From a virus, in IMG/VR virus record IMGVR_UViG_3300046834_000025, positions 13,834-77,833 of that record: a stretch of 64,000 bases of DNA; one strand, 5' to 3'. This document shows positions 18,965 through 58,750 of the stretch, piece by piece. The first letter of the stretch is position 1. The number at the start of each line of letters is the position of its first letter. The notes beneath the pieces are model-generated. The model saw nothing but the letters and a program-made list of their open reading frames with translations, had not been told where the DNA came from and searched no databases. Both the position numbers and the translations under genes were made by a program.

Positions 18965-19473
18965 TGAACTCCGGCGTGCCGACCCTGGCCAACCTGCTCA
19001 GCAAGTTCGAGCAGGTCGGCTCGGGGTGCTGGGAGTGGGTCAACCCGACTCACAAGCAGGGCTACGGTACGATCAGGTGGGACGGGCGAACGGTCTTCGC
19101 TCACCGGCTGATGGTGGCTGCAGTCTACGGCGTAACGCTCGAACAGATCCGAGAAGATGTAGTCCGGCACTCATGTGACAACACGTCGTGTGTCAACCCG
19201 CTTCATCTGCTCGTAGGAACACAACAGCAGAACTGTTTCGATCGGCTAATCCGTGGCCGACGCGTCGAACGACTAAACAACACAAGGCGTCTCTCCGTCG
19301 ACATCGTTACGGAGATGCGACGTCGAGCACGGCAAGGCGAACGAGGTGTTGCTTTGGCACACGAGTTCGGAATTTCGAAGAGCAGCACCTATCAAGCAAT
19401 CCGAGGCTACACATGGTCATGGATTGAAGAACCACCCGTCACAACACTGAGAGGAAACCGACATGAACAGTAA
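18964..19473 (+). CDS. HNH endonuclease with C-terminal HTH
   Basis: CWEW...GYG...AHR...VRHSCDNTSCVNPLHL.GTQQQN; LAHEFGIS. Confidence 0.9.
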   Translation: MNSGVPTLANLLSKFEQVGSGCWEWVNPTHKQGYGTIRWDGRTVFAHRLMVAAVYGVTLEQIREDVVRHSCDNTSCVNPLHLLVGTQQQNCFDRLIRGRRVERLNNTRRLSVDIVTEMRRRARQGERGVALAHEFGISKSSTYQAIRGYTWSWIEEPPVTTLRGNRHEQ

Positions 19474-19869: not shown

Positions 19870-19895
19870 ACCACCGCCAAGAAGGGAAACCGACC

Positions 19896-23834: not shown

Positions 23835-24284
23835 GTGATCCCTGGTCTGGGTGAGCCAGAATGCGAGCTCACGTACAAGGAGATTGACGCGCGGTTCGTC
23901 AGCATCCCTGAGCTCGCTCAGCTAACCGGCTTCTCTGCCAGGCAGATTGACTACCTCATCCGGTCGGATCGGCTCTACCCAACGCACTACACGTGGAGCA
24001 ATCTGCACCTCAAGGCACCCGTGTGGGTTTGGTTGCCAGGCACCGAGATCAGCAGCGGGTACCGCCGCATCTGGGAGCGAGGCAGCGACCGGCTGAGGTA
24101 CGTGCTCCTGCTTTCCGCCTGGGTGAAGATGGGCATGAGCACTGCGTCAGCCGTTGCTCTGGCCAAGCACCATGTCTTTGGAACGGAACTGCCAGTATTC
24201 CTTCTCCCGCTGGCGGATGTGGAACTGAGAGAGGAAACCGATGAACGACGCAATGAAGCGAGTCAAGAAGGCTCTCAAGGGTGA
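23835..24284 (+). CDS. MerR-like HTH DNA-binding protein
   Basis: SIPELAQLTGFSARQIDY...SGYRRIW. Confidence 0.6.
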   Translation: MIPGLGEPECELTYKEIDARFVSIPELAQLTGFSARQIDYLIRSDRLYPTHYTWSNLHLKAPVWVWLPGTEISSGYRRIWERGSDRLRYVLLLSAWVKMGMSTASAVALAKHHVFGTELPVFLLPLADVELREETDERRNEASQEGSQG

Positions 24285-25675: not shown

Positions 25676-25715
25676 GCCTACCTGGTTCAGTTCCAACAAG
25701 AGAAAGAGGAAACCG

Positions 25716-26477
25716 ATGGATCACATCTCTGTCAAGGGAAGCGAGCTCCGTATCGACCCCGATGCGCAGCGTCTCTTCGAGCAGCACCGCGCCAACAAGA
25801 TCGCAGAGGAGTGGGACGAGCGTTCTGTCGGCGCGATCACCGTTTCCCTCCGGGACGATGGCGGCATGTACATCCTCGATGGGATGCACCGCGTTGCTGC
25901 CGGTCTCCTGGTCGACCCCGACATGATGTTCTTCTGCATCATCCACAAGAACATGTCGGCAGAGGACGAAGCGACCCTGTTCCTGCGCTCAAACAACGAG
26001 CGCAAGAGCGTCAACAGGTTCGACACCTACCGGATGTACCTCCGGGCGAACGACGAAGTCGCACTCCGCATTCAGGCGGAGGTGATGGCTGCCGGACTGT
26101 CGGTCGGACGCAGGGCATCTACCAACCAGGTATCTGCCGTCGTTACCCTCCGGCGCTGGGCAGAGAAGGACGTACCTCCGTACGGTCTGATCACCCGCGC
26201 ACTCAACATCAACGAGGTTGCATGGGGGCGCACCGCTGAGGCATGGGACAACACCGTCATCGCCGCAGTCTGCGAAGTCTTGCACAAGAACCCGCACATC
26301 CAGATCAACCGGCTGGTGCATACCCTTCAGAAGTTCGTCGTGGCTCAGTGGGCTGCAAAGGGTGTGGAGCGCATCGGCGGTAGCGGTGGTTCCGCGTCAC
26401 GTCCGAGCAGCACTGCAGCCTGCATCTGCGACGAGTACAACAAGAGGCTGAGCTTGGCCAAGCGCATCGGTCTCTGA
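25716..26477 (+). CDS. ParB/Srx-like domain protein (DUF6551-like)
   Basis: IDPDAQR...GAITVSLR...YILDGMHR...EATLF. Confidence 0.75.
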   Translation: MDHISVKGSELRIDPDAQRLFEQHRANKIAEEWDERSVGAITVSLRDDGGMYILDGMHRVAAGLLVDPDMMFFCIIHKNMSAEDEATLFLRSNNERKSVNRFDTYRMYLRANDEVALRIQAEVMAAGLSVGRRASTNQVSAVVTLRRWAEKDVPPYGLITRALNINEVAWGRTAEAWDNTVIAAVCEVLHKNPHIQINRLVHTLQKFVVAQWAAKGVERIGGSGGSASRPSSTAACICDEYNKRLSLAKRIGL

Positions 26478-26786: not shown

Positions 26787-26838
26787 TGATTCTTGTCAGC
26801 AAGCCTGACCCCCAAGATTCATCGTTGAGAGGAAACCG

Positions 26839-27225
26839 ATGATCATCACCATCGACACGAGCCAGCCTCTGTCTCAGATCGACTTGGACGCGCTCATGGC
26901 GCTCACGGGTGTCGTCGCCCCTTCGCCGAACGGCCAGGAACCGCCGTCTGCGCCGGTCTCCGTCGTGCCCACCAAGAAGGCTGCGCCTGCCAAGAAGGCC
27001 GCTGCACCGAAGGCTGAGCCGAAGCCGGAGACGCCCGCAGAACTCGCTGCGGACGAGGACGAGGCTGCCAAGCTGCAGGAGACCGCTCACGCCAAGGCGA
27101 GTGGCCTTCTCGCCGATGGTCAGCGTGACCGCGTGATCGCGGCTCTCAAGGAGATCGGCGCTGCACGTGTCGCCGAAGTCCCGGCTGACAAGCTGCAGGA
27201 GTTCATCGACGCTCTGGGTGAGTGA
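26839..27225 (+). CDS. hypothetical protein of the exonuclease/SSB module
   Basis: exact GAGAGGAAACCGATG; Ala/Lys/Pro linker. Confidence 0.75.
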   Translation: MIITIDTSQPLSQIDLDALMALTGVVAPSPNGQEPPSAPVSVVPTKKAAPAKKAAAPKAEPKPETPAELAADEDEAAKLQETAHAKASGLLADGQRDRVIAALKEIGAARVAEVPADKLQEFIDALGE

Positions 27226-27486: not shown

Positions 27487-28676
27487 GCGAGCACATGCGG
27501 CTTCACGCAACGCTCTCACCTTCAAGTGCAGAGCGGTGGCTGGAGTGTCCGGCATCAATCCGGCTCATCAGTACTCTCGAGCGCGGTGAAGACAGCAGTA
27601 CCGTCTACGCCGAAGAGGGTACGCGGGCACACAACCTGGCCGAGATCGAAGCCTCCTACCAGTTCGACATGATCACGGTGGAAGACTACCGGACTCGCCG
27701 GACAGCCTGGTTGCGAATCGCCGAGACACACGGTGACGATGTGGAGGAAATGGATCGGCACGTTCGCGTGTACGTCCGTCTCCTGCAGGACATTATGGCT
27801 AGCAGGCCGCACGCCACCCTACGCCTGGAACAGCGGGTGCAGACCGGCGTTCCTGGTTGTTGGGGAACGGGAGACGCAATCATCATCGCGCCGACCACGA
27901 TCGATGTCGTCGACTTCAAGTACGGCCAGGGCGTCGGCGTCATCGCACACGAGAACCCGCAACTCATGCTCTACGGCCTCGGTGCGCTCGAGATGTTCGA
28001 TGGTGTGATCGGAGACACGCAGTCTGTCACCGTTCATATCTGTCAGCCACGGGTCGGAGGGATGTCACACTATACCATCGGTGCGAAGGAACTTCGAGCC
28101 TGGCGCGACGATGCCGTCATGCCGATCGCACGAGAGACGCAGCACCCTGATGCCCGATTCGGGCCGTCCGAGGTTGCCTGTCGCTGGTGTCCGGCATCAG
28201 GTATCTGCAAGGCACGAGCGCGCTACATCACGGAGCGTGACTTCGGCAGTCCTGACGTGCTGTCGATGGACGAGCTCGCGGAAGCCTTCAAGACACTCAC
28301 CGACATCCGAGACTGGTGCAATGCCGTTGAGGCAGAAGCCTTGAAGCAGGCGTACAGCGAGGGTGAAGAACTGCCTGGACTGAAGGTCGTGATGTCGGGC
28401 GGCAAGCGGTCGATCCCTGATCCTCCGGCTGCCATCAAGAAACTGCAGGCAGCAGGCTTCTCGCTCGAACAGGTGAGCCGTCTCTCCATGAAGACATTGG
28501 GAGACTTGGAGCGCCTGGTCGGCAAGGACAAGCTACCCAACGTGCTAGGTCCCTTGCTAGTCAAGAGCCCTGGCAAACCTGCTCTCGTGCCTGAGAGCGA
28601 CAATCGGCCAGCCGTCACCGCACTAACGGCTGCCGCAGAAGACTTCCAGAGTCCTCTGGAGGATGAGCAAGGATGA
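27483..28676 (+). CDS. Cas4-like PD-(D/E)xK exonuclease (DUF2800)
   Basis: HATLSPSSAERWLECP, GTGDA, VDFKYG, NPQLMLY, CRWCP. Confidence 0.9.
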   Translation: MSEHMRLHATLSPSSAERWLECPASIRLISTLERGEDSSTVYAEEGTRAHNLAEIEASYQFDMITVEDYRTRRTAWLRIAETHGDDVEEMDRHVRVYVRLLQDIMASRPHATLRLEQRVQTGVPGCWGTGDAIIIAPTTIDVVDFKYGQGVGVIAHENPQLMLYGLGALEMFDGVIGDTQSVTVHICQPRVGGMSHYTIGAKELRAWRDDAVMPIARETQHPDARFGPSEVACRWCPASGICKARARYITERDFGSPDVLSMDELAEAFKTLTDIRDWCNAVEAEALKQAYSEGEELPGLKVVMSGGKRSIPDPPAAIKKLQAAGFSLEQVSRLSMKTLGDLERLVGKDKLPNVLGPLLVKSPGKPALVPESDNRPAVTALTAAAEDFQSPLEDEQG

Positions 28677-28692
28677 GAGAGATGAGAACGCT

Positions 28693-29286
28693 ATGGCAGA
28701 GAACGACACCACCGAGGCACGCCGTGTCATCACGGGCCGTGTCCGGCTGAGCTTCCCGTACCTGTTCAAGCCGCGACCCCCGATGGCTGGCCAGGAGGGA
28801 GAGCCGAAGTACAGCGTGATGCTGTTGATCCCCAAGAGCGACACCGTCACGATGGAAAAGCTCCGCAAGGCCGAGAAGCTTGCCCTCGAACAGGGCAAGG
28901 CCGGAACGTTCGGCTCGAACTTCAAGATGTCCTCTCTTGCACCGTCCATCATCAAGGACGCCGACGAGGACGGCACTGCGGAGGACTACCCGGAGCGTGA
29001 GGGCATGTACTACATGACCGTCAACGCTCAGGAAGCCTTCAAGCCGCAGGTGGTCGACAAGAACCTCAACCCGATCATCGACCAGAGCGAGGTCTACTCC
29101 GGCGTCTGGGCCAGGGTCTCCGTCTCCGCGTTCCCGTACAAGTACGGGGACATGAAGCGGGGCATCTCCTTCGGCCTCAACAACGTCCAGGTTCTCGGCT
29201 ACGGTGAGAGCCTGCGCGGTGGCAAGAGCGCCGACCAGGACTTCGACGCGGTCGAGATCGCGGAAGAGGACGCGAGTCTGCTCTGA
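28693..29286 (+). CDS. single-stranded DNA-binding protein (DUF2815)
   Basis: RLSFPYLFKP, KYSVMLLIPK, YSGVWAR, GISFGLNNVQ, acidic tail. Confidence 0.9.
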   Translation: MAENDTTEARRVITGRVRLSFPYLFKPRPPMAGQEGEPKYSVMLLIPKSDTVTMEKLRKAEKLALEQGKAGTFGSNFKMSSLAPSIIKDADEDGTAEDYPEREGMYYMTVNAQEAFKPQVVDKNLNPIIDQSEVYSGVWARVSVSAFPYKYGDMKRGISFGLNNVQVLGYGESLRGGKSADQDFDAVEIAEEDASLL

Positions 29287-29323
29287 TTCACCCCCACGTC
29301 GGGCTCGACGTGGTAAGATAGGT

Positions 29324-29379
29324 GTGGTGCCGCGCGGCGGTTGGGTTATGTCGGTTTCCTCTCCCTCGCGCGGCACTAC
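29324..29379 (+). ncRNA. Candidate antisense RNA hairpin; loop complementary to the start-associated motif
   Basis: 13-bp stem 29324-29336/29367-29379 (one G-U); loop contains atgtcggtttcctctc; TGG-TAAGAT -10 box at 29311-29319. Confidence 0.55.
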
Positions 29380-29400
29380 TCCCTCCCTGAGAGGAAACCG

Positions 29401-29628
29401 ATGACGCAGTACGTGAAGGTCGAAATCGACGAGGGTCGTGCCTACACCTACGGGTGGGACGGCGAAGAGCCTCTCAAGCCTGGCGACCAGGTGGTGCTTC
29501 CTAGCAACATGGTCCGCAATCGGACCTTCTCCGGACGAGTTCTGCGAATTCTGGCAGAGTCGGATTTCAAGGGGCCGATCAAGAACATCCTCTCGAAGGT
29601 CAATGACGACTTGGAAAGCCTTCTGTAG
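29401..29628 (+). CDS. hypothetical protein
   Basis: exact GAGAGGAAACCGATG; YTY...LKPGDQVVLP. Confidence 0.75.
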   Translation: MTQYVKVEIDEGRAYTYGWDGEEPLKPGDQVVLPSNMVRNRTFSGRVLRILAESDFKGPIKNILSKVNDDLESLL

Positions 29629-29631
29629 AGG

Positions 29632-29660
29632 TTGCGTTGTAGCATCAAACATGCTACAAT
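29632..29660 (+). promoter_or_regulatory. SigA-like promoter P3
   Basis: TTGCGT-17bp-TACAAT with TG extension. Confidence 0.75.
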
Positions 29661-29709
29661 GATCGAACGTACCAGTCGACCGGCTGGACGAGTAGTGGAA
29701 GGAATCACA

Positions 29710-30990
29710 GTGTTCAAGAAGAGCCTGCTCTGTCTGTGTTCGAGCGTTGCGCTCATTCTCGGCATGGGCCTCATCGCCTCTCCGGCTGAGGCTGCTCCGG
29801 GTGACGAGTTCATCGTCAACGGCGACTTCAGCGACTACGACCCGGCGACTGGCGCGATCACGGACGGCGTGACGACGACCGACTTCTCGCTCACCACCTC
29901 TCTCGCTGAGGCATCTTCGCCTGGCAACGGGGACATGTACGACCCCGGCGTGTACGCCGTCTCGACCAACGCGGGCGCGCTCCACAACCAGTGGATCGAG
30001 CAGGCGGGCGACAACCCCAAGATGGTCCTCAACGGCTTCACCGAAGGCGTGCAGACCGTCTGGCAGCAGACCGCTGACGGCGTCACCTGCGACACGCCCG
30101 GATCGACCATCGGGTTCGAGTTCACCGCTGATGTCGCCAACGTCCTTCCGCTCGACCAGTACAGCGACGGCGGAGCGAACATTTCGGTCTACATCAACGA
30201 CCAGCTCATCGGCTCCGCCGACCTCACATCCAACGACGGTACGCCCGTGTCGATCTCGAGCGCGATGGTTCCGGCTGCTGATGCGTTCGTCATCGAGGTT
30301 CGGAACAGCGCGACCGTCTATGTCGGCAACGACTTCTCGCTCGACAACCTGTCGCTGGTCCAGACCGGCGATTGCACCGCTCCGGTGGCCGTCCTGTTCG
30401 ATGTCGCGCCGACCGACCCGACGTGTGAAGCCGATGGCTCGCTCGACACCTCGCTGTTCCCGATCGTCCGCGAGGGCTACACCCTCACCGTCGACCGGGC
30501 CTTCGACGGTCCCGGCGACTACGTGATCACTGCCACCGCTGCTGACGGCTTCTTCTTCTCCGGCGACGGCGACCCGTTCGTCCGCTCCGTGACTGTCACC
30601 GTGGGCGAACGTCTGCCCGCTGCGGAGTGCCGTGTTGGTGGGCTCACGATCGGCTACTACAAGAACCACGCCGTCTCCGAGGCTACCTGGGATGCGGCAC
30701 GCGCCGGTCTGAACACCCTGTTCGGGGCGTACCCGAACTGGAACAACGCGCTCGCGGTGCTGAACGCCAAGCCGACCAATGACGGCTCGGTGCAGTTGCT
30801 CCGTCAGGCAATCGCGTTCGCTCTGAACGTCGAGACCATCGACGGCTTCGCTGAGAACATCATGCCGAACGGCATGACCGCCGAGGCGTACCTCGACTAC
30901 CTGAACGCCACGCCGACAGCGTGGGACACCAGGTCGGAACGGCTCGCGATCGCTGCGATCCTCGACGCTGCCAACCAGCACGTCGTCTGA
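29710..30990 (+). CDS. secreted acidic beta-rich protein (moron-like)
   Basis: signal peptide ending AEA; IVNGDFS...SLDNLSL jelly-roll-like domain. Confidence 0.75.
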   Translation: MFKKSLLCLCSSVALILGMGLIASPAEAAPGDEFIVNGDFSDYDPATGAITDGVTTTDFSLTTSLAEASSPGNGDMYDPGVYAVSTNAGALHNQWIEQAGDNPKMVLNGFTEGVQTVWQQTADGVTCDTPGSTIGFEFTADVANVLPLDQYSDGGANISVYINDQLIGSADLTSNDGTPVSISSAMVPAADAFVIEVRNSATVYVGNDFSLDNLSLVQTGDCTAPVAVLFDVAPTDPTCEADGSLDTSLFPIVREGYTLTVDRAFDGPGDYVITATAADGFFFSGDGDPFVRSVTVTVGERLPAAECRVGGLTIGYYKNHAVSEATWDAARAGLNTLFGAYPNWNNALAVLNAKPTNDGSVQLLRQAIAFALNVETIDGFAENIMPNGMTAEAYLDYLNATPTAWDTRSERLAIAAILDAANQHVV

Positions 30991-30998
30991 CCCGAACT

Positions 30999-31031
30999 GG
31001 GCCGGAGCATCCCACGGGGGTGCTCCGGCCC
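30999..31031 (+). terminator. hairpin terminator
   Basis: gggccggagca/tgctccggccc. Confidence 0.65.
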
Positions 31032-31052
31032 TACACCATTGAGAGGAAACCG

Positions 31053-31238
31053 ATGAGCTACCTCGATAGACTCCTGACAGAGCCTGCCGTCAAGTGTCAG
31101 TGCCCGTCCCGCGACTCTGGTGCTGCAGCCTTCCACGGCGGCAAGCCGGACGGCTGCCCACGGGATGCCCTGGTGCCACGCGGAGTGGTCACCAGTCCAG
31201 CACTCTGTGCCGCCTGCCTGCACGGCTGCATGGACTGA
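31053..31238 (+). CDS. small Cys-rich protein
   Basis: exact GAGAGGAAACCGATG. Confidence 0.65.
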   Translation: MSYLDRLLTEPAVKCQCPSRDSGAAAFHGGKPDGCPRDALVPRGVVTSPALCAACLHGCMD

Positions 31239-33571: not shown

Positions 33572-33645
33572 CTGATGAAGCTCATCATGTTCGCGTTCCT
33601 GGTCGGCGCGATTCTTTCTGTCAGTATCACACCGAGAGGAAACTG

Positions 33646-33813
33646 ATGAGAGTTGCAGCGCGGGTCACCATCGTCATGCCGGACGGCACTACCTACGACT
33701 ACGCTCCTGGTGAGGCACAGGTCCAACTAGTTGACACCGTCGTTGAGGACAAGAACACCAAGAAGAAGTCGCCGGTCAGGTACTTCAACATCGTTGCGCC
33801 GGTTGTGCCATGA
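33646..33813 (+). CDS. hypothetical protein
   Basis: GAGAGGAAACTGATG start. Confidence 0.55.
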   Translation: MRVAARVTIVMPDGTTYDYAPGEAQVQLVDTVVEDKNTKKKSPVRYFNIVAPVVP

Positions 33814-36671: not shown

Positions 36672-36828
36672 TCACCCGGAATGGTTGCGTTGAGGCAGGT
36701 CACCGCGTTATGATGACGAACAGCAGGGTCCGTGGTGGCCCGGAGGCAACGAAGACTACGAGCACTAGAGGTACACGTAGCTCGCTTCCCCTGTTACTAG
36801 TCTCCCTTTCAAAGACGAGAGGAAACCG

Positions 36829-37131
36829 ATGTCAACTGCCTCAATCTCAGGCACCATCGCCGGTTCCCGTCCTCTGTCACTAGGTTTCAACGTCGCCACT
36901 CCTCCACTTCTCATGGGTCGCAGCGTACTTCCGTGCGCCGGTCGTGCGAGCTTGTTCTTCCCCGCCACCTACCGAAACTGGGCACGAGTCCGAGAGGCTT
37001 GTGCCCTCTGTGACACTTGTCCTGTAGTTCGCGAATGTCTGGCATGGGCCGTCGCCAGACCTGACCTCGACGGTATCTGGGGCGGGACCACACCGCCTCA
37101 ACGTCGCCGAATACGAACAGGGAAAATCTGA
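36829..37131 (+). CDS. second WhiB-family regulator
   Basis: C...LFFP...CDTCPVVREC...GIWGG; exact start motif. Confidence 0.88.
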   Translation: MSTASISGTIAGSRPLSLGFNVATPPLLMGRSVLPCAGRASLFFPATYRNWARVREACALCDTCPVVRECLAWAVARPDLDGIWGGTTPPQRRRIRTGKI

Positions 37132-40056: not shown

Positions 40057-40089
40057 TCTGTGTTACAATGGAAGCGAAGGGAGACCGAC

Positions 40090-54984: not shown

Positions 54985-56046
54985 CTACCTCCGTGAGCCA
55001 ACGATGGACGGCGCGTGGAGGATCCTCGCGGCGGAGGACGTGAGGTTGGTCGTGTTGCCTCGCAGGACAAGGAGCGCACGCAGGATCGAGTTCTCGGCGA
55101 TGTTGTCCTCTGGCGCGAACGGGTCTTGCCACGCACCGCTCACAGCGTCGTCCAGGGATGAGTAGATGCGCTGGCCGTACTGGATGCGCACGATGCCAGA
55201 GGCGAACAGGCTCACGCGCTGCACGGAGAACTGTGCGGAGGTAACCGTGGTCAAGGTGCCGTTGTTGTCCCATCTCGCAGGGTCGAGAATCGTCCTGTCA
55301 GCACCGAACTCGTTCACGCGGTCTCGGTAGCGGAACGACACGAGAGGCTGTGCCGGGAGCGTCACCTGGTGTGGCGAGAACGGATCCGATGAGACACCTG
55401 CCTTGAACATCGAGCCTGCGCTCATGGAGAGCGAGAGAGGCCCACCAGGAGTGAAGATCAGACCGTCTCGCCGGATCGGGCCGATTGCAGAGAATAGGTC
55501 GTAGAGTTGCGAGAGTACACTGTTGCCGACCTGCGCACCGGAGTCGACACCGTTGATCGTGCTCTTGTTCGAGTGCACGACCAGGCCCAGAGGCACGATC
55601 TGCCGTCGCTGCATGTCGGTCGGCGGGTTGGTGTGCTGGATGACGTGTCCGTTGACCGTCAGGCTGACGTAGGTCACCAACTGGTTGGCGATCTCTGTGA
55701 CTGCGATGCCGGTCTTCGCAGGCACAGTGACGATCTGCTGTGAGGTGTTTCGCGGGTCGGTGATGTCGTCGTAGACCACCAAGGTGGCCTCAGAAACATC
55801 GAACTTGGTGTCGTCGGTCGCGTTGACAGAAAGTTGCCCTCCGGCCACGATCGACGTACCGAGGTACATCGGACGTGCTGATGGGACGGCGTAGGCTAGC
55901 ATGTCCCATGTAGTCTCGCCGTCGCCGATCTTGAACCGGCCCGTGTCATCCTCAACGCCGATGACCGCGATCGGCACGACAGGGTTGTCGTTCGCCCATG
56001 TCGCGGCGCTCGCGTGCATCTGAGTCAGGTACCCACCCTGTATCAC
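54985..56046 (-). CDS. fibre-like virion protein with Mtd/hyaluronidase-type N-terminal domain
   Basis: WANDNPV...IGVEDDTGRFKIGDGETTW.LAY. Confidence 0.7.
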   Translation of the reverse strand: MIQGGYLTQMHASAATWANDNPVVPIAVIGVEDDTGRFKIGDGETTWDMLAYAVPSARPMYLGTSIVAGGQLSVNATDDTKFDVSEATLVVYDDITDPRNTSQQIVTVPAKTGIAVTEIANQLVTYVSLTVNGHVIQHTNPPTDMQRRQIVPLGLVVHSNKSTINGVDSGAQVGNSVLSQLYDLFSAIGPIRRDGLIFTPGGPLSLSMSAGSMFKAGVSSDPFSPHQVTLPAQPLVSFRYRDRVNEFGADRTILDPARWDNNGTLTTVTSAQFSVQRVSLFASGIVRIQYGQRIYSSLDDAVSGAWQDPFAPEDNIAENSILRALLVLRGNTTNLTSSAARILHAPSIVGSRR

Positions 56047-56047
56047 T

Positions 56048-56863
56048 TTATGCCCTCCACGTAGTCTGTCTTCCGACCGAACGGTAGTCCGGCGAAGCCA
56101 TCGAGAAGCCGATGTCAGGCTTCATCACACTCGCCACCCAGGAGTCCACGAGCCAGATGCCGGTTCGACCCTTGTCCATGTCGTCAAACGTCTGCACCAG
56201 GAGGGAGACGGAGACACCTTGTCGGGTGATCGATTGCACACGTGAGGGAAGCTCACAGCCCTTTGCGCCGCAGGCAGCCTTGGCGAACTCACACGCCAAC
56301 TTGCCTGCGGCGATCTGACCACCGACCGGAACCGGCTCACCCGTGAGGAGGGTGATCGCCCAGGTGTCCGGCTCTCCGAGCGCATGACTCATGTTCTGGC
56401 AGAACGGCCACTGCTGGCCATCCTCGCGAACGAGAAGAACGTTGTTGTCCACCCTGTAGGTCGTGGGATCGATCACCACGCCGTCGATCTCGATGCTTGC
56501 GATGCCGGACACCGGCTTGTCGAATCGCAGAGCGCGACCAGAGGAGCAACCACAGTTGTCGCCACAACCACCGCAGCCGATGTTGAACCACGAGCCACCG
56601 ATCAAGGTTGGGTGCCACGGGTTGCCATTGTGAGAGGAAGAAGTTCCACCCGTCATGCCGCCGTGATACGTACTGAGACCTGCCGTGCAGTCCTGACGGC
56701 AGGGACGAATCGTTGCCTCACACTGACCGAACCGCTGACCCGTCCAGCGCCACAGGAACTCTGTGGCCATGTCTTCCCACATCTCGACGCCGGAAGGAGG
56801 CAGGGAGGTGAGCGGTTCGCAAGGGCCACATGAGGTGTAATCCACCGGCCACGTACACTCCAT
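56048..56863 (-). CDS. head-to-tail adaptor
   Basis: LWRWTGQRFG, LACEFAKA...CELPSRVQSITRQGVS, TGIWLVD. Confidence 0.8.
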   Translation of the reverse strand: MECTWPVDYTSCGPCEPLTSLPPSGVEMWEDMATEFLWRWTGQRFGQCEATIRPCRQDCTAGLSTYHGGMTGGTSSSHNGNPWHPTLIGGSWFNIGCGGCGDNCGCSSGRALRFDKPVSGIASIEIDGVVIDPTTYRVDNNVLLVREDGQQWPFCQNMSHALGEPDTWAITLLTGEPVPVGGQIAAGKLACEFAKAACGAKGCELPSRVQSITRQGVSVSLLVQTFDDMDKGRTGIWLVDSWVASVMKPDIGFSMASPDYRSVGRQTTWRA

Positions 56864-57646: not shown

Positions 57647-58750
57647 CTAGACGGTTACCATTCGGACAGCGGCCACGCCGCACGGGTCGAACCCGACGAC
57701 GTACTGACGTTCGGCGAGCGCATACATGTCGTTCTGCCTCTGGTCGAACGCCTGGTGCGAGAGAACTGCACCCCGGTAACCGAAGAGGGCAGGTGAGGCG
57801 TACACCCAGGTCTCGCCTTCGACGACTGGTGCCGCACCATCGTTGAGAATGGTGTGGTTCCACGAAGCATCTCCCGCTCCGATGCCGTCCACCTGAGAGA
57901 TATCCAGACTGATGTTCGGCTGTGGTCCGGGAGACTGCCAGGTGAGAACGAGAGTTGTAGGGGCTCCCGTAACGACAACGTTATCAGGAGCCTGAAACAC
58001 GCTCATCGTATTCAAGGCTGCCTGAGCATCTGCAAGCGTGCCAGCCAGGTAGATCGGTGGGGAGGTTTCACCCTTGAAGGTCAGCGTGTAGCTTCCCACG
58101 CCAGATGTGTAGCTCACCAGTGATCCACGCTGAGACGCCAGTGAACCAGCGGCATCGGGACCGATGCCATTGTAGCCTGCGCCTGCAACGATCGGCGTTC
58201 CGAGCATGGAAACGAGACGCGAACCCGATGCCCTCAGATGATTGCTGCCGTCCCAAAGGGTGACAGCACCACGGTCGCCGTGGAGCACACCGAGAGAGCC
58301 GTAGACTCCTCCCAGCCACTTCTCAAGCGCAGCAAGCGCCGCATCAGGATCGAGGGCACCTGCCGGATTCAGATCGGTCGCCTGCGCAGCGAGCATGGAC
58401 CAGACGTACCGTTCTGCCTGCGCCTCTTCACGAGCCAACAGGTGCGCCGTCGCAGCCTCTTCCGCCTGCAAGTCGGCACGCCCACCGGGCATCCCACATT
58501 TTGCAGAGCCATAGACTACGAAGGAGTCTGCTTCACCCCTCTCCACCATACTGGTGAAGAACTTCTCCTGCGGGTCTGTACAGTTCGGATCGGCGAAGCC
58601 TGACGCCGGATCACACGTCATCGCCTCCCACTCGATGCCGTTGGTCCAGTGCTGATCCTCCGCATTGCGAAGAGAAAGCACGGAGAACAGCCCGAATGGT
58701 AGGCCGATGCGAGGCTGTCCTGCGACAACCTGCCTGGCACCGTATCCCAT
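57647..58750 (-). CDS. major capsid pentamer protein with inserted domain
   Basis: FGLFSV, HWTNGIEW, GTPIVAGAGY, NDMYALAERQYVVGFD; follows hexamer gene. Confidence 0.75.
   Translation of the reverse strand: MGYGARQVVAGQPRIGLPFGLFSVLSLRNAEDQHWTNGIEWEAMTCDPASGFADPNCTDPQEKFFTSMVERGEADSFVVYGSAKCGMPGGRADLQAEEAATAHLLAREEAQAERYVWSMLAAQATDLNPAGALDPDAALAALEKWLGGVYGSLGVLHGDRGAVTLWDGSNHLRASGSRLVSMLGTPIVAGAGYNGIGPDAAGSLASQRGSLVSYTSGVGSYTLTFKGETSPPIYLAGTLADAQAALNTMSVFQAPDNVVVTGAPTTLVLTWQSPGPQPNISLDISQVDGIGAGDASWNHTILNDGAAPVVEGETWVYASPALFGYRGAVLSHQAFDQRQNDMYALAERQYVVGFDPCGVAAVRMVTV

Follow-up and report, generated by a model that had tools for sequence, protein, structure and literature searches.

A hairpin behind a phage SSB gene whose loop mirrors the phage's own start tag: a candidate antisense RNA for a dispersed gene set

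Cluster K mycobacteriophages mark about a dozen of their non-structural genes with start-associated sequences (SAS). These are asymmetric 13-bp motifs that contain the Shine-Dalgarno (SD) core, sit a few bases before the ATG in a single orientation, and are peculiar to this group of phages (Pope et al. 2011, PMC3203893). That study did not settle whether SAS is bound by an RNA or by a protein, of host or of phage origin, and reported without explanation that each K1 phage has one reverse-oriented SAS that is not at a gene start. Extended SAS (ESAS) repeats of Cluster K were judged likelier to be protein sites on DNA (PMC3203893), and the role of SAS was still called ill-defined in papers of 2024 and 2025 (PMC11373665, PMC12699233). 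Here we analyze a hairpin that lies behind the Gp2.5-like SSB gene in a 64,000-nucleotide stretch of DNA from an uncultured actinobacterial phage of soil (bases 13834-77833 of a 77.8-kb IMG/VR virus record, IMGVR_UViG_3300046834_000025; the whole stretch is called the window below). The loop of this hairpin is antisense to a SAS-like start tag of the same phage.

Like SAS, the window tag is an asymmetric motif of about 13 bp near the ATG; it keeps to one orientation, marks about a dozen non-structural genes, and is private to the phage. Its sequence, GAGAGGAAACCGA, differs from the SAS consensus GGGATAGGAGCCC, and the phage does not belong to the Cluster K lineage. Judged from sequence, the window tag is thus one that works like SAS but stands outside the Cluster K family. 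We saw no 17-bp ESAS repeats in the window phage, though no search was aimed at them.

Phage RNAs that pair with ribosome-binding sites (RBSs) of the same phage are also known. The c4 antisense RNA of phages P1 and P7 (Rfam RF01695; reviewed in PMC12197685) shares with the window hairpin a loop complementary to the RBS region of the same phage's message. In both, a target lies downstream on the same transcript, so that action in cis and in trans is possible. A 2025 review of phage small RNAs gives c4 of P1/P7 as its example of loop-to-RBS antisense and mentions neither mycobacteriophages nor actinobacteria. An initial annotation of the window, made from the letters alone, had proposed that the hairpin controls the shared starts and had not recognized it as a described system. 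For the hairpin this holds: Rfam and the set of papers searched gave no description of a tag-mirroring hairpin, and the SAS papers describe no antisense hairpin. For the motif it does not, because the tag is of the same kind as Cluster K SAS (PMC3203893). An Rfam scan of the window found no family, including RF01695, at gathering score, and raising E to as much as 10 added chance miRNA models only.

The start tag and its mirror in the loop

The 13-mer GAGAGGAAACCGA occurs exactly on the plus strand at 19449, 24229, 26827, 29389, 31041, and 36817, each copy ending in or just before an ATG. Only one exact copy lies on the minus strand of the window, at 29351-29363, and it falls within the loop of the hairpin. 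Sites with up to two mismatches number 11 against 2.1 expected, a count reached in none of 100 shuffles. Near copies with a start codon are found at 19881, 25525 (one extra A), 25704, and 33634, and a three-mismatch copy at 40076. The rest of the 77.8-kb record holds one further exact copy, on the minus strand at genome position 12931, before a 103-aa minus-strand open reading frame (ORF). In total, about 12 starts are tagged (six exact and about five near-exact in the window), which matches the number of dispersed genes first proposed. Tag copies end 0-5 nt before the ATG and lie on the coding strand of their own gene, near the exonuclease, SSB, polymerase, and WhiB genes and small ORFs. The sole exception is the loop copy.

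The element behind the SSB gene is made up as follows.

28663-29286, plus strand: gene for a Gp2.5-like single-stranded-DNA-binding/annealing protein (PHROG 112, E = 5e-50)
29294-29313, plus strand: small 8-bp hairpin, CCACGTCG / CGACGTGG, loop GGCT (from folding); its 3' arm overlaps the TG of the -10 box
29311-29319, plus strand: extended -10-like box TGGTAAGAT (from sequence)
29324-29337, plus strand: 5' arm of the main stem (from folding, and covariation in relatives)
29338-29365, plus strand: 28-nt loop, its 3' half antisense to the start tag, its 5' half GGUUGGGUUA conserved too
29351-29363, plus strand: anti-tag TCGGTTTCCTCTC, exact complement of GAGAGGAAACCGA
29366-29379, plus strand: 3' arm of the main stem (from folding, and covariation in relatives)
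29380-29388, plus strand: pyrimidine-rich linker UCCCUCCCU, without a U-tract
29389-29403, plus strand: adjacent tag GAGAGGAAACCGA (29389-29401), which continues into the 75-aa gene's ATG (from sequence)
29401-29628, plus strand: 75-aa gene 3' of the element (ORF)

The main stem has 14 bp, including two G-U pairs, around a loop of 28 nt. It folds at -34.8 kcal/mol, with z = -5.4 against shuffled sequence. The hairpin is therefore the one initially annotated, with sizes close enough to the 13 bp and 30 nt given then, and the extended -10 box named before it is present at 29311-29319. Loop bases 29348-29363 read ATGTCGGTTTCCTCTC and form a 16-nt complement to the start at 19449. Both pairing claims made for the loop hold, 16 of 16 positions at 19449-19464 and 13 of 13 at five other starts (exact tags at 24229, 26827, 29389, 31041, and 36817). 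The 5' half of the loop (29339-29348), which lies outside the anti-tag, is kept in the window and in the related loci L145, L146, and L148.

As claimed at the outset, of all antisense tag copies in the genome only that in the loop has no start codon after it; the other minus-strand copy is the one before the 103-aa ORF. On the minus strand, the sequence 3' of the loop copy is CATAACCC, which holds no ATG, GTG, or TTG, so the loop copy is not a minus-strand RBS. The idea that the loop copy serves as the RBS of a minus-strand gene was rejected, since no start codon follows in any instance inspected, and on this point too the initial claim stands. A decoy RNA from the minus strand was likewise rejected: there is no promoter-like box on that strand, and the -10 box is conserved on the plus strand.

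The correspondence between loop and tag extends to other phages. We took as the tag of each whole genome its most repeated 10-12-mer (for G002, a clearly enriched 9-mer), which is an extended RBS before many starts and often lies about 25 nt behind an extended -10 promoter. The tags are these.

G000 (the window's genome) and G001: GAGAGGAAACCGA
G003: GAAGGAGACCA
G002: AAGGAGACC
LuckyBarnes: AAAGGAACCGAAATG
Montesquieu: CCGAAAGGAACCAC

In all six whole genomes, the post-SSB loop is antisense to the genome's own commonest tag over 9-16 contiguous bases, across five versions of the tag. In all six, the loop is also the only antisense tag copy not at a gene start. Sites with at least 11 nt of loop complementarity number 7 in G000, 11 in G001, and 7 in G003, compared with 0.2-1.9 for shuffled loops, and 24 of these 25 sites lie beside a start codon. 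For sites of at least 9 nt, the counts are 10 in LuckyBarnes (shuffled loops, 0.3) and 10 in Montesquieu (3.6). A loop-complementary seed is kept across the six genomes and five tag versions, with 7-12 targets in each. The co-variation of loop and motif that the initial annotation had asked to see in relatives is therefore present. Corynebacterium phage SamW serves as a negative control: it has the SSB gene, and the hairpin at the same place is a plain one whose loop holds no anti-tag, in a genome with no repeated tag.

Further tagged starts of the window are listed here.

19449-19465, plus strand: tagged start GAGAGGAAACCGACATG of a 114-aa ORF, the longest complement to the loop (16 nt)
24229-24243, plus strand: tagged start of a 91-aa ORF (exact tag)
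25525, plus strand: one-base-longer tag copy before a 45-aa ORF (near-exact tag)
25704-25718, plus strand: tagged start of a 253-aa DUF6551 protein (near-exact tag, one mismatch)
26827-26841, plus strand: tagged start of a 128-aa ORF (exact tag)
31041-31055, plus strand: tagged start of a 61-aa ORF (exact tag), with a GC-rich hairpin upstream at about 30999-31031
33634-33648, plus strand: tagged start of a 55-aa ORF (near-exact tag, one mismatch)
36817-36831, plus strand: tagged start of a WhiB-family gene of 100 aa (exact tag)

Two of the tagged starts, 31041 and genome position 12931 (minus strand), have a strong hairpin 9-11 nt upstream that is GC-rich and small-looped and holds no anti-tag; hairpin-then-tag is a recurring layout. 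In LuckyBarnes (L228-L230), five tagged starts have a repeated block, AGTGAGTTATAGTTATTACATCA (about 25 nt long), some 25 nt upstream of them (minus strand; 45687, 45289, 42964, 36581, and 31896); this block is probably a phage early promoter. Near its genome end, G002 has CACAAGGGAAAGC repeated at least seven times within purine-rich sequence (L138:91-563), and the array recurs at 55892-56294, in the terminal repeat region.

Conservation of the module and a Cluster K counterpart

The window has 61% G+C and genes of actinophage type (exonuclease, Gp2.5-like SSB, DNA polymerase, and WhiB). Relatives were found through a profile of SSB homologues searched in IMG/VR and metagenomes. The SSB homologues P0002-P0014 are 60-72% identical. 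The module stands directly 3' of the SSB stop codon (29286 in the window) in 13 loci: the window, L112 (G001), L113 (G002), L114 (G003), L144-L148, L150, L180, LuckyBarnes, and Montesquieu. Two of the carriers have been cultured: LuckyBarnes, a phage of Brevibacterium (B. iodinum ATCC 15728; hairpin at L226:934-969), and Montesquieu, a phage of Glutamicibacter (hairpin at L239:1068-1119). Ranked by SSB, the nearest relatives in culture have Brevibacterium, Glutamicibacter, and Corynebacterium as hosts. Each module opens with a -10-like box; a perfect, GC-rich stem (12-18 bp) then closes a loop that measures 12-41 nt, and the linker that follows is rich in pyrimidines, being C-rich in the relatives. 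Hairpin stability across the 13 loci ranges from z = -3.4 to -7.1 against shuffled sequence. There are at least five unrelated stem sequences, and every one pairs.

Among the seven closest relatives, compensatory changes occur at 5 of 13 stem pairs, and pairing is kept in 95.5% of cells. Four of five covariation measures were reached by only 0-1 of 500 shuffles, compared with 108 of 500 for the count of further pair types, and slid controls collapsed. Covariation was counted on these seven only, because a MAFFT/RNAalifold alignment of 11 instances misaligned four divergent stems. The loop is conserved more than the flanking coding sequence; it is near-identical in L145, L146, and L148 despite an SSB that is 59-65% identical to that of the window (best tblastn segment). 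A covariance model (R1) recovered its training set and gave weak matches to L144 and the G003 copy. It found a second copy in no genome, and the anti-tag hairpin is present once per genome. In a soil strain variant covering 29133-29514 (run X3, one low-depth contig), eight substitutions lie in flanking coding sequence and none in 29221-29405, with a 1-nt insertion in the linker as the sole change within the element. This pattern weakly suggests constraint on the element.

Other routes to relatives gave little. Megablast of 28600-30200 against cultured phages returned no match, and its distant mode matched the SSB gene only. The exact inverted-repeat pattern had no match in IMG/VR, and an SSB single-sequence query of IMG/VR found nothing, so that the profile of homologues alone succeeded. 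The 15-mer of tag plus ATG occurs in 102 IMG/VR contigs; the 80 listed (L010-L089) each have a single match, which is chance level, and none is a relative. The sole IMG/VR return for the 75-aa protein, L009, is an AT-rich unrelated phage and was rejected as spurious. The element is absent from L115-L132 and from most metagenome loci with SSB identity below about 50%.

A TAnnAT-type box, usually TGnTAnnAT, precedes the stem by 4-10 nt in 12 of the 13 instances, and the genes on both sides of the element are on the plus strand. On the plus strand of the 77.8-kb genome TGnTAnnAT has seven copies, five of them apparently in gene gaps and two (40451 and 44317) not placed. From the -10-like box, transcription is predicted to start near 29325-29328. 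The small hairpin at 29294-29313, which abuts the box and has equivalents in L145, L148, L147, L150, and L113, may mark the end of the SSB transcript.

The gene 3' of the module varies: it belongs to the 75-aa family, is another small ORF, or, in six relatives, encodes DNA polymerase. What the module accompanies is thus the SSB end, and not any single cis target. Neither Pfam nor PHROG has a match for the 75-aa protein, whose homologues lie 3' of the hairpin in L112, L146, L147, and L150. Its structure in a structural atlas gives TM 0.69-0.77 to PriA_3primeBD and PSP1 clusters, a lead by which the protein may resemble the PriA 3'-DNA-binding-domain fold. We had considered it as an RNA chaperone partner and dropped the idea, as the structural leads favor the PriA-like fold. 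In the same low-depth strain-variant contig, six substitutions fall within 13 nt just 3' of the 75-aa start codon. Directly 3' of the gene, at 29652-29660, is a promoter-like box TGCTACAAT, overlapped by the inverted repeat GTAGCAT (29639-29645)/ATGCTAC (29651-29657), perhaps an operator that covers a promoter.

A counterpart exists in Cluster K. The reverse SAS of K1 phage Anaya sits in the apical loop CCUCCUAUCC of a strong hairpin (z = -4), and this hairpin is kept in 128 phage records. There is no SAS adjoining the Anaya hairpin. The Cluster K hairpin lies close to the genome's right end, whereas that of the window follows SSB. In Adephagia it occupies the gap between genes 92 and 93 (58,654-58,727), which is where late transcription appears to start (PMC11373665). 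The RBS of Anaya gp97 (L224:35045-35070) reads GAGAGGAAACGCC-ATG, which is near the window tag and unlike the Cluster K SAS; this is possibly a coincidence.

Pairing in trans, pairing in cis, and other explanations

We hold, at about even confidence, that the hairpin is an antisense RNA that occludes the tagged starts in trans and, in this phage, the neighboring start in cis. The sequences, fold energies, conservation, and loop-tag co-variation behind this reading are observed here. That the hairpin is transcribed, that it pairs with the tags inside cells, that the result is repression, and when this happens are inferred. A plus-strand stem-loop RNA would be made from its own extended -10 promoter (29311-29319) or within an SSB read-through transcript, and its loop would display the complement of the private ribosome-binding tag GAGAGGAAACCGA(TG). 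The loop would then pair with the tag on the messages of about 10-12 non-structural genes (the replication module, WhiB, and small ORFs). Such a duplex would hide the SD core, the spacer, and sometimes the AUG, 30S subunits could not bind, and translation of the whole gene set would fall together. In this phage, the loop would also pair over 15 bp with the tag 25 nt downstream, as a pseudoknot or alternative fold over the 75-aa start. The GC-rich 5' hairpin should outlive ordinary messages, and its accumulation could act as a timer or brake on early proteins. Of the silencing of shared starts first proposed, what stands is that the loop is kept complementary to the motif (13 syntenic loci, compensating stems, and five tag versions); the silencing itself would follow from pairing.

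Several points weigh against this reading. In L147 and L150, the loop departs from the tag through a substitution or an added base. Loops of the closest relatives are shared by descent, so that the co-variation amounts to about three to five independent tag changes and not 13. RNAfold predicts that part of the anti-tag is weakly paired within the loop. Because the window hairpin has no U-tract, it is perhaps only a 5' leader, and a discrete small RNA is not assured; in LuckyBarnes and Montesquieu a U-rich run follows the stem, which makes a discrete RNA of 45-60 nt plausible there. The -10 box is of the same class as the boxes before tagged genes, and a simple early-to-late switch therefore does not follow. 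Among the 15 sequence sets listed as containing the phage, all DNA contigs from soil or rhizosphere, none is an RNA run. As few as 5-7 bp suffice for a pseudoknot in cis, and a cis-only role could therefore be served even where the neighboring RBS deviates. Furthermore, relatives that keep the motif and lack the antisense loop, of which none was found in the window's family, do occur in Cluster K: Amgine, Ekdilam, and SirPhilip keep the stem and a canonical SAS with diverged loops, and TM4 and Pixie have SAS and no anti-SAS hairpin. These exceptions imply that tags can work without the RNA, which would then be an added regulator and not the general reader of the tag.

It is unlikely, but the most credible of the alternatives, that the hairpin is a cis-only leader switch. 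On this account, the loop of the 5' leader pairs solely with the neighboring RBS, through an H-type pseudoknot or alternative fold, and sets one gene; the other starts match merely because the neighboring RBS is itself a tag copy. Bases 29349-29363 can indeed pair with 29389-29403 over 15 bp that include the AUG (13 Watson-Crick pairs and two G-U pairs, the latter being the G-U extension initially proposed), with a duplex energy of -25.2 kcal/mol. The nested alternative fold reaches -32.1 kcal/mol, 4.5 above the -36.6 kcal/mol of the hairpin fold. In this phage it is therefore credible that the 75-aa gene is affected in cis. The geometry is pseudoknot-like as well: in most instances, the anti-tag abuts the 3' arm and a pyrimidine-rich linker of 8-14 nt follows. 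The window has a 2-3-nt junction and a 9-nt linker, an arrangement whose energy ViennaRNA cannot score. Pairing of the loop with the adjacent RBS amounts to at least -10 kcal/mol in every instance.

Yet three relatives speak against a purely cis role, since their neighboring RBS has drifted while the loop still fits the genome-wide tag. The G001 loop matches the genome-wide tag over 11 contiguous bases compared with about 5 for the neighboring RBS. Duplex energies for genome-wide tag and neighboring RBS are -27.2 and -22.7 kcal/mol for the L148 loop, and -22.9 and -10.6 kcal/mol for that of Montesquieu. A cis-only leader also leaves unexplained why there is one per genome despite many tagged genes, why the downstream gene is not conserved, and why the Anaya hairpin has no neighboring SAS. 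The drift in three relatives, the single copy per genome, and the variable downstream gene together favor selection for pairing with dispersed tags. This lends sequence-level support to the trans action suggested in the initial annotation.

We consider it distinctly improbable that the hairpin serves just as a structural RNA, ending the SSB transcript or stabilizing a 5' end, with a loop that has no pairing role (for example, a site for an RNA-binding protein or a relic of RBS sequence). The U-rich run after the stem in LuckyBarnes and Montesquieu is as in an intrinsic terminator, SamW has its plain hairpin at the same place, and GC-rich hairpins precede other tagged starts (about 30999-31031 and genome position 12931). 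A terminator, however, does not need a loop of 12-41 nt. The window hairpin lacks a U-tract and does not have the form of an intrinsic terminator, with its 28-nt loop followed by UACUCCCUCCCU and no entry there in a terminator scan. Loops that track five tags in six genomes, and that are better conserved than the flanking coding sequence, are also unlike a relic.

Slightly more doubtful still is a competing-RNA switch, in which the leader shuts the neighboring gene in cis and abundant tagged messages titrate the loop, reopening that gene and coupling early expression to the replication genes. It draws on the same sequence facts as antisense occlusion. Cis and trans partners compete for a single loop, and the downstream gene is a DNA polymerase in six relatives. 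The scheme is nevertheless wholly inferential, and the neighboring RBS pairs weakly with the loop in Montesquieu and L180. Least probable of all is a DNA-level element, with the reversed tag as an operator or the inverted repeat as a single-stranded DNA hairpin in replication (for example, a priming signal): the position between SSB and polymerase or primase genes and the judgment on ESAS repeats (PMC3203893) would suit it, but it fails to explain why the reversed tag always sits in the unpaired loop of a compensating stem behind a -10 box, and the tags stand at RBS positions on the coding strand only, with no minus-strand promoter-like box nearby.

Relation to known regulatory systems

C-rich-loop small RNAs of Gram-positive bacteria, such as 6C in Actinobacteria and RsaE in Firmicutes, pair with G-rich SD regions and do not need Hfq. 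The window hairpin is like them in opposing a C/U-rich hairpin loop to SD regions on a number of messages. The seeds of those RNAs, which are encoded by the host, are short and fit generic SD sequence, whereas the complement in window-type hairpins runs to 9-16 nt and includes the private spacer. For this reason, the window loop should single out the phage's own tagged genes.

In phage T4, the proteins RegA (a repressor) and RegB (an endonuclease) shut off early messages at the RBS. There, as proposed here, a phage function acts at the SD/start region of many early messages, which are lowered jointly; the effectors are proteins in T4 and would be an RNA here. If antisense occlusion of the tagged starts is correct, the hairpin is an RNA counterpart of the protein-based early shut-off of T4. 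Private pairs of tag and anti-tag would then also be usable as orthogonal translation controls in actinobacterial genetics.

More broadly, and with somewhat less than even confidence, we suggest that actinobacterial phages with private RBS tags encode one master hairpin RNA that lowers the tagged set in trans, as a stable-RNA timer or in an immunity-like role, and that this also explains the SAS of Cluster K. SAS have been named and unexplained since 2011, and a tag-mirroring hairpin offers them a concrete, testable binding partner. The idea can be tested by ordinary experiments, because LuckyBarnes and Montesquieu carry the module and tractable phages of the Anaya and Adephagia types carry the analogous hairpin. 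RNA-seq of Adephagia and ZoeJ, covering lytic growth at 30 and 210 min and the lysogen, is already published (PMC11373665).

Antisense RNA at ribosome-binding sites is already known. The c4 RNA has two loops for one target region (icd/ant), serves in immunity, and is cut from a precursor by RNase P, whereas the window hairpin has one loop and about a dozen dispersed targets. The distinguishing feature here is the private multi-gene tag.

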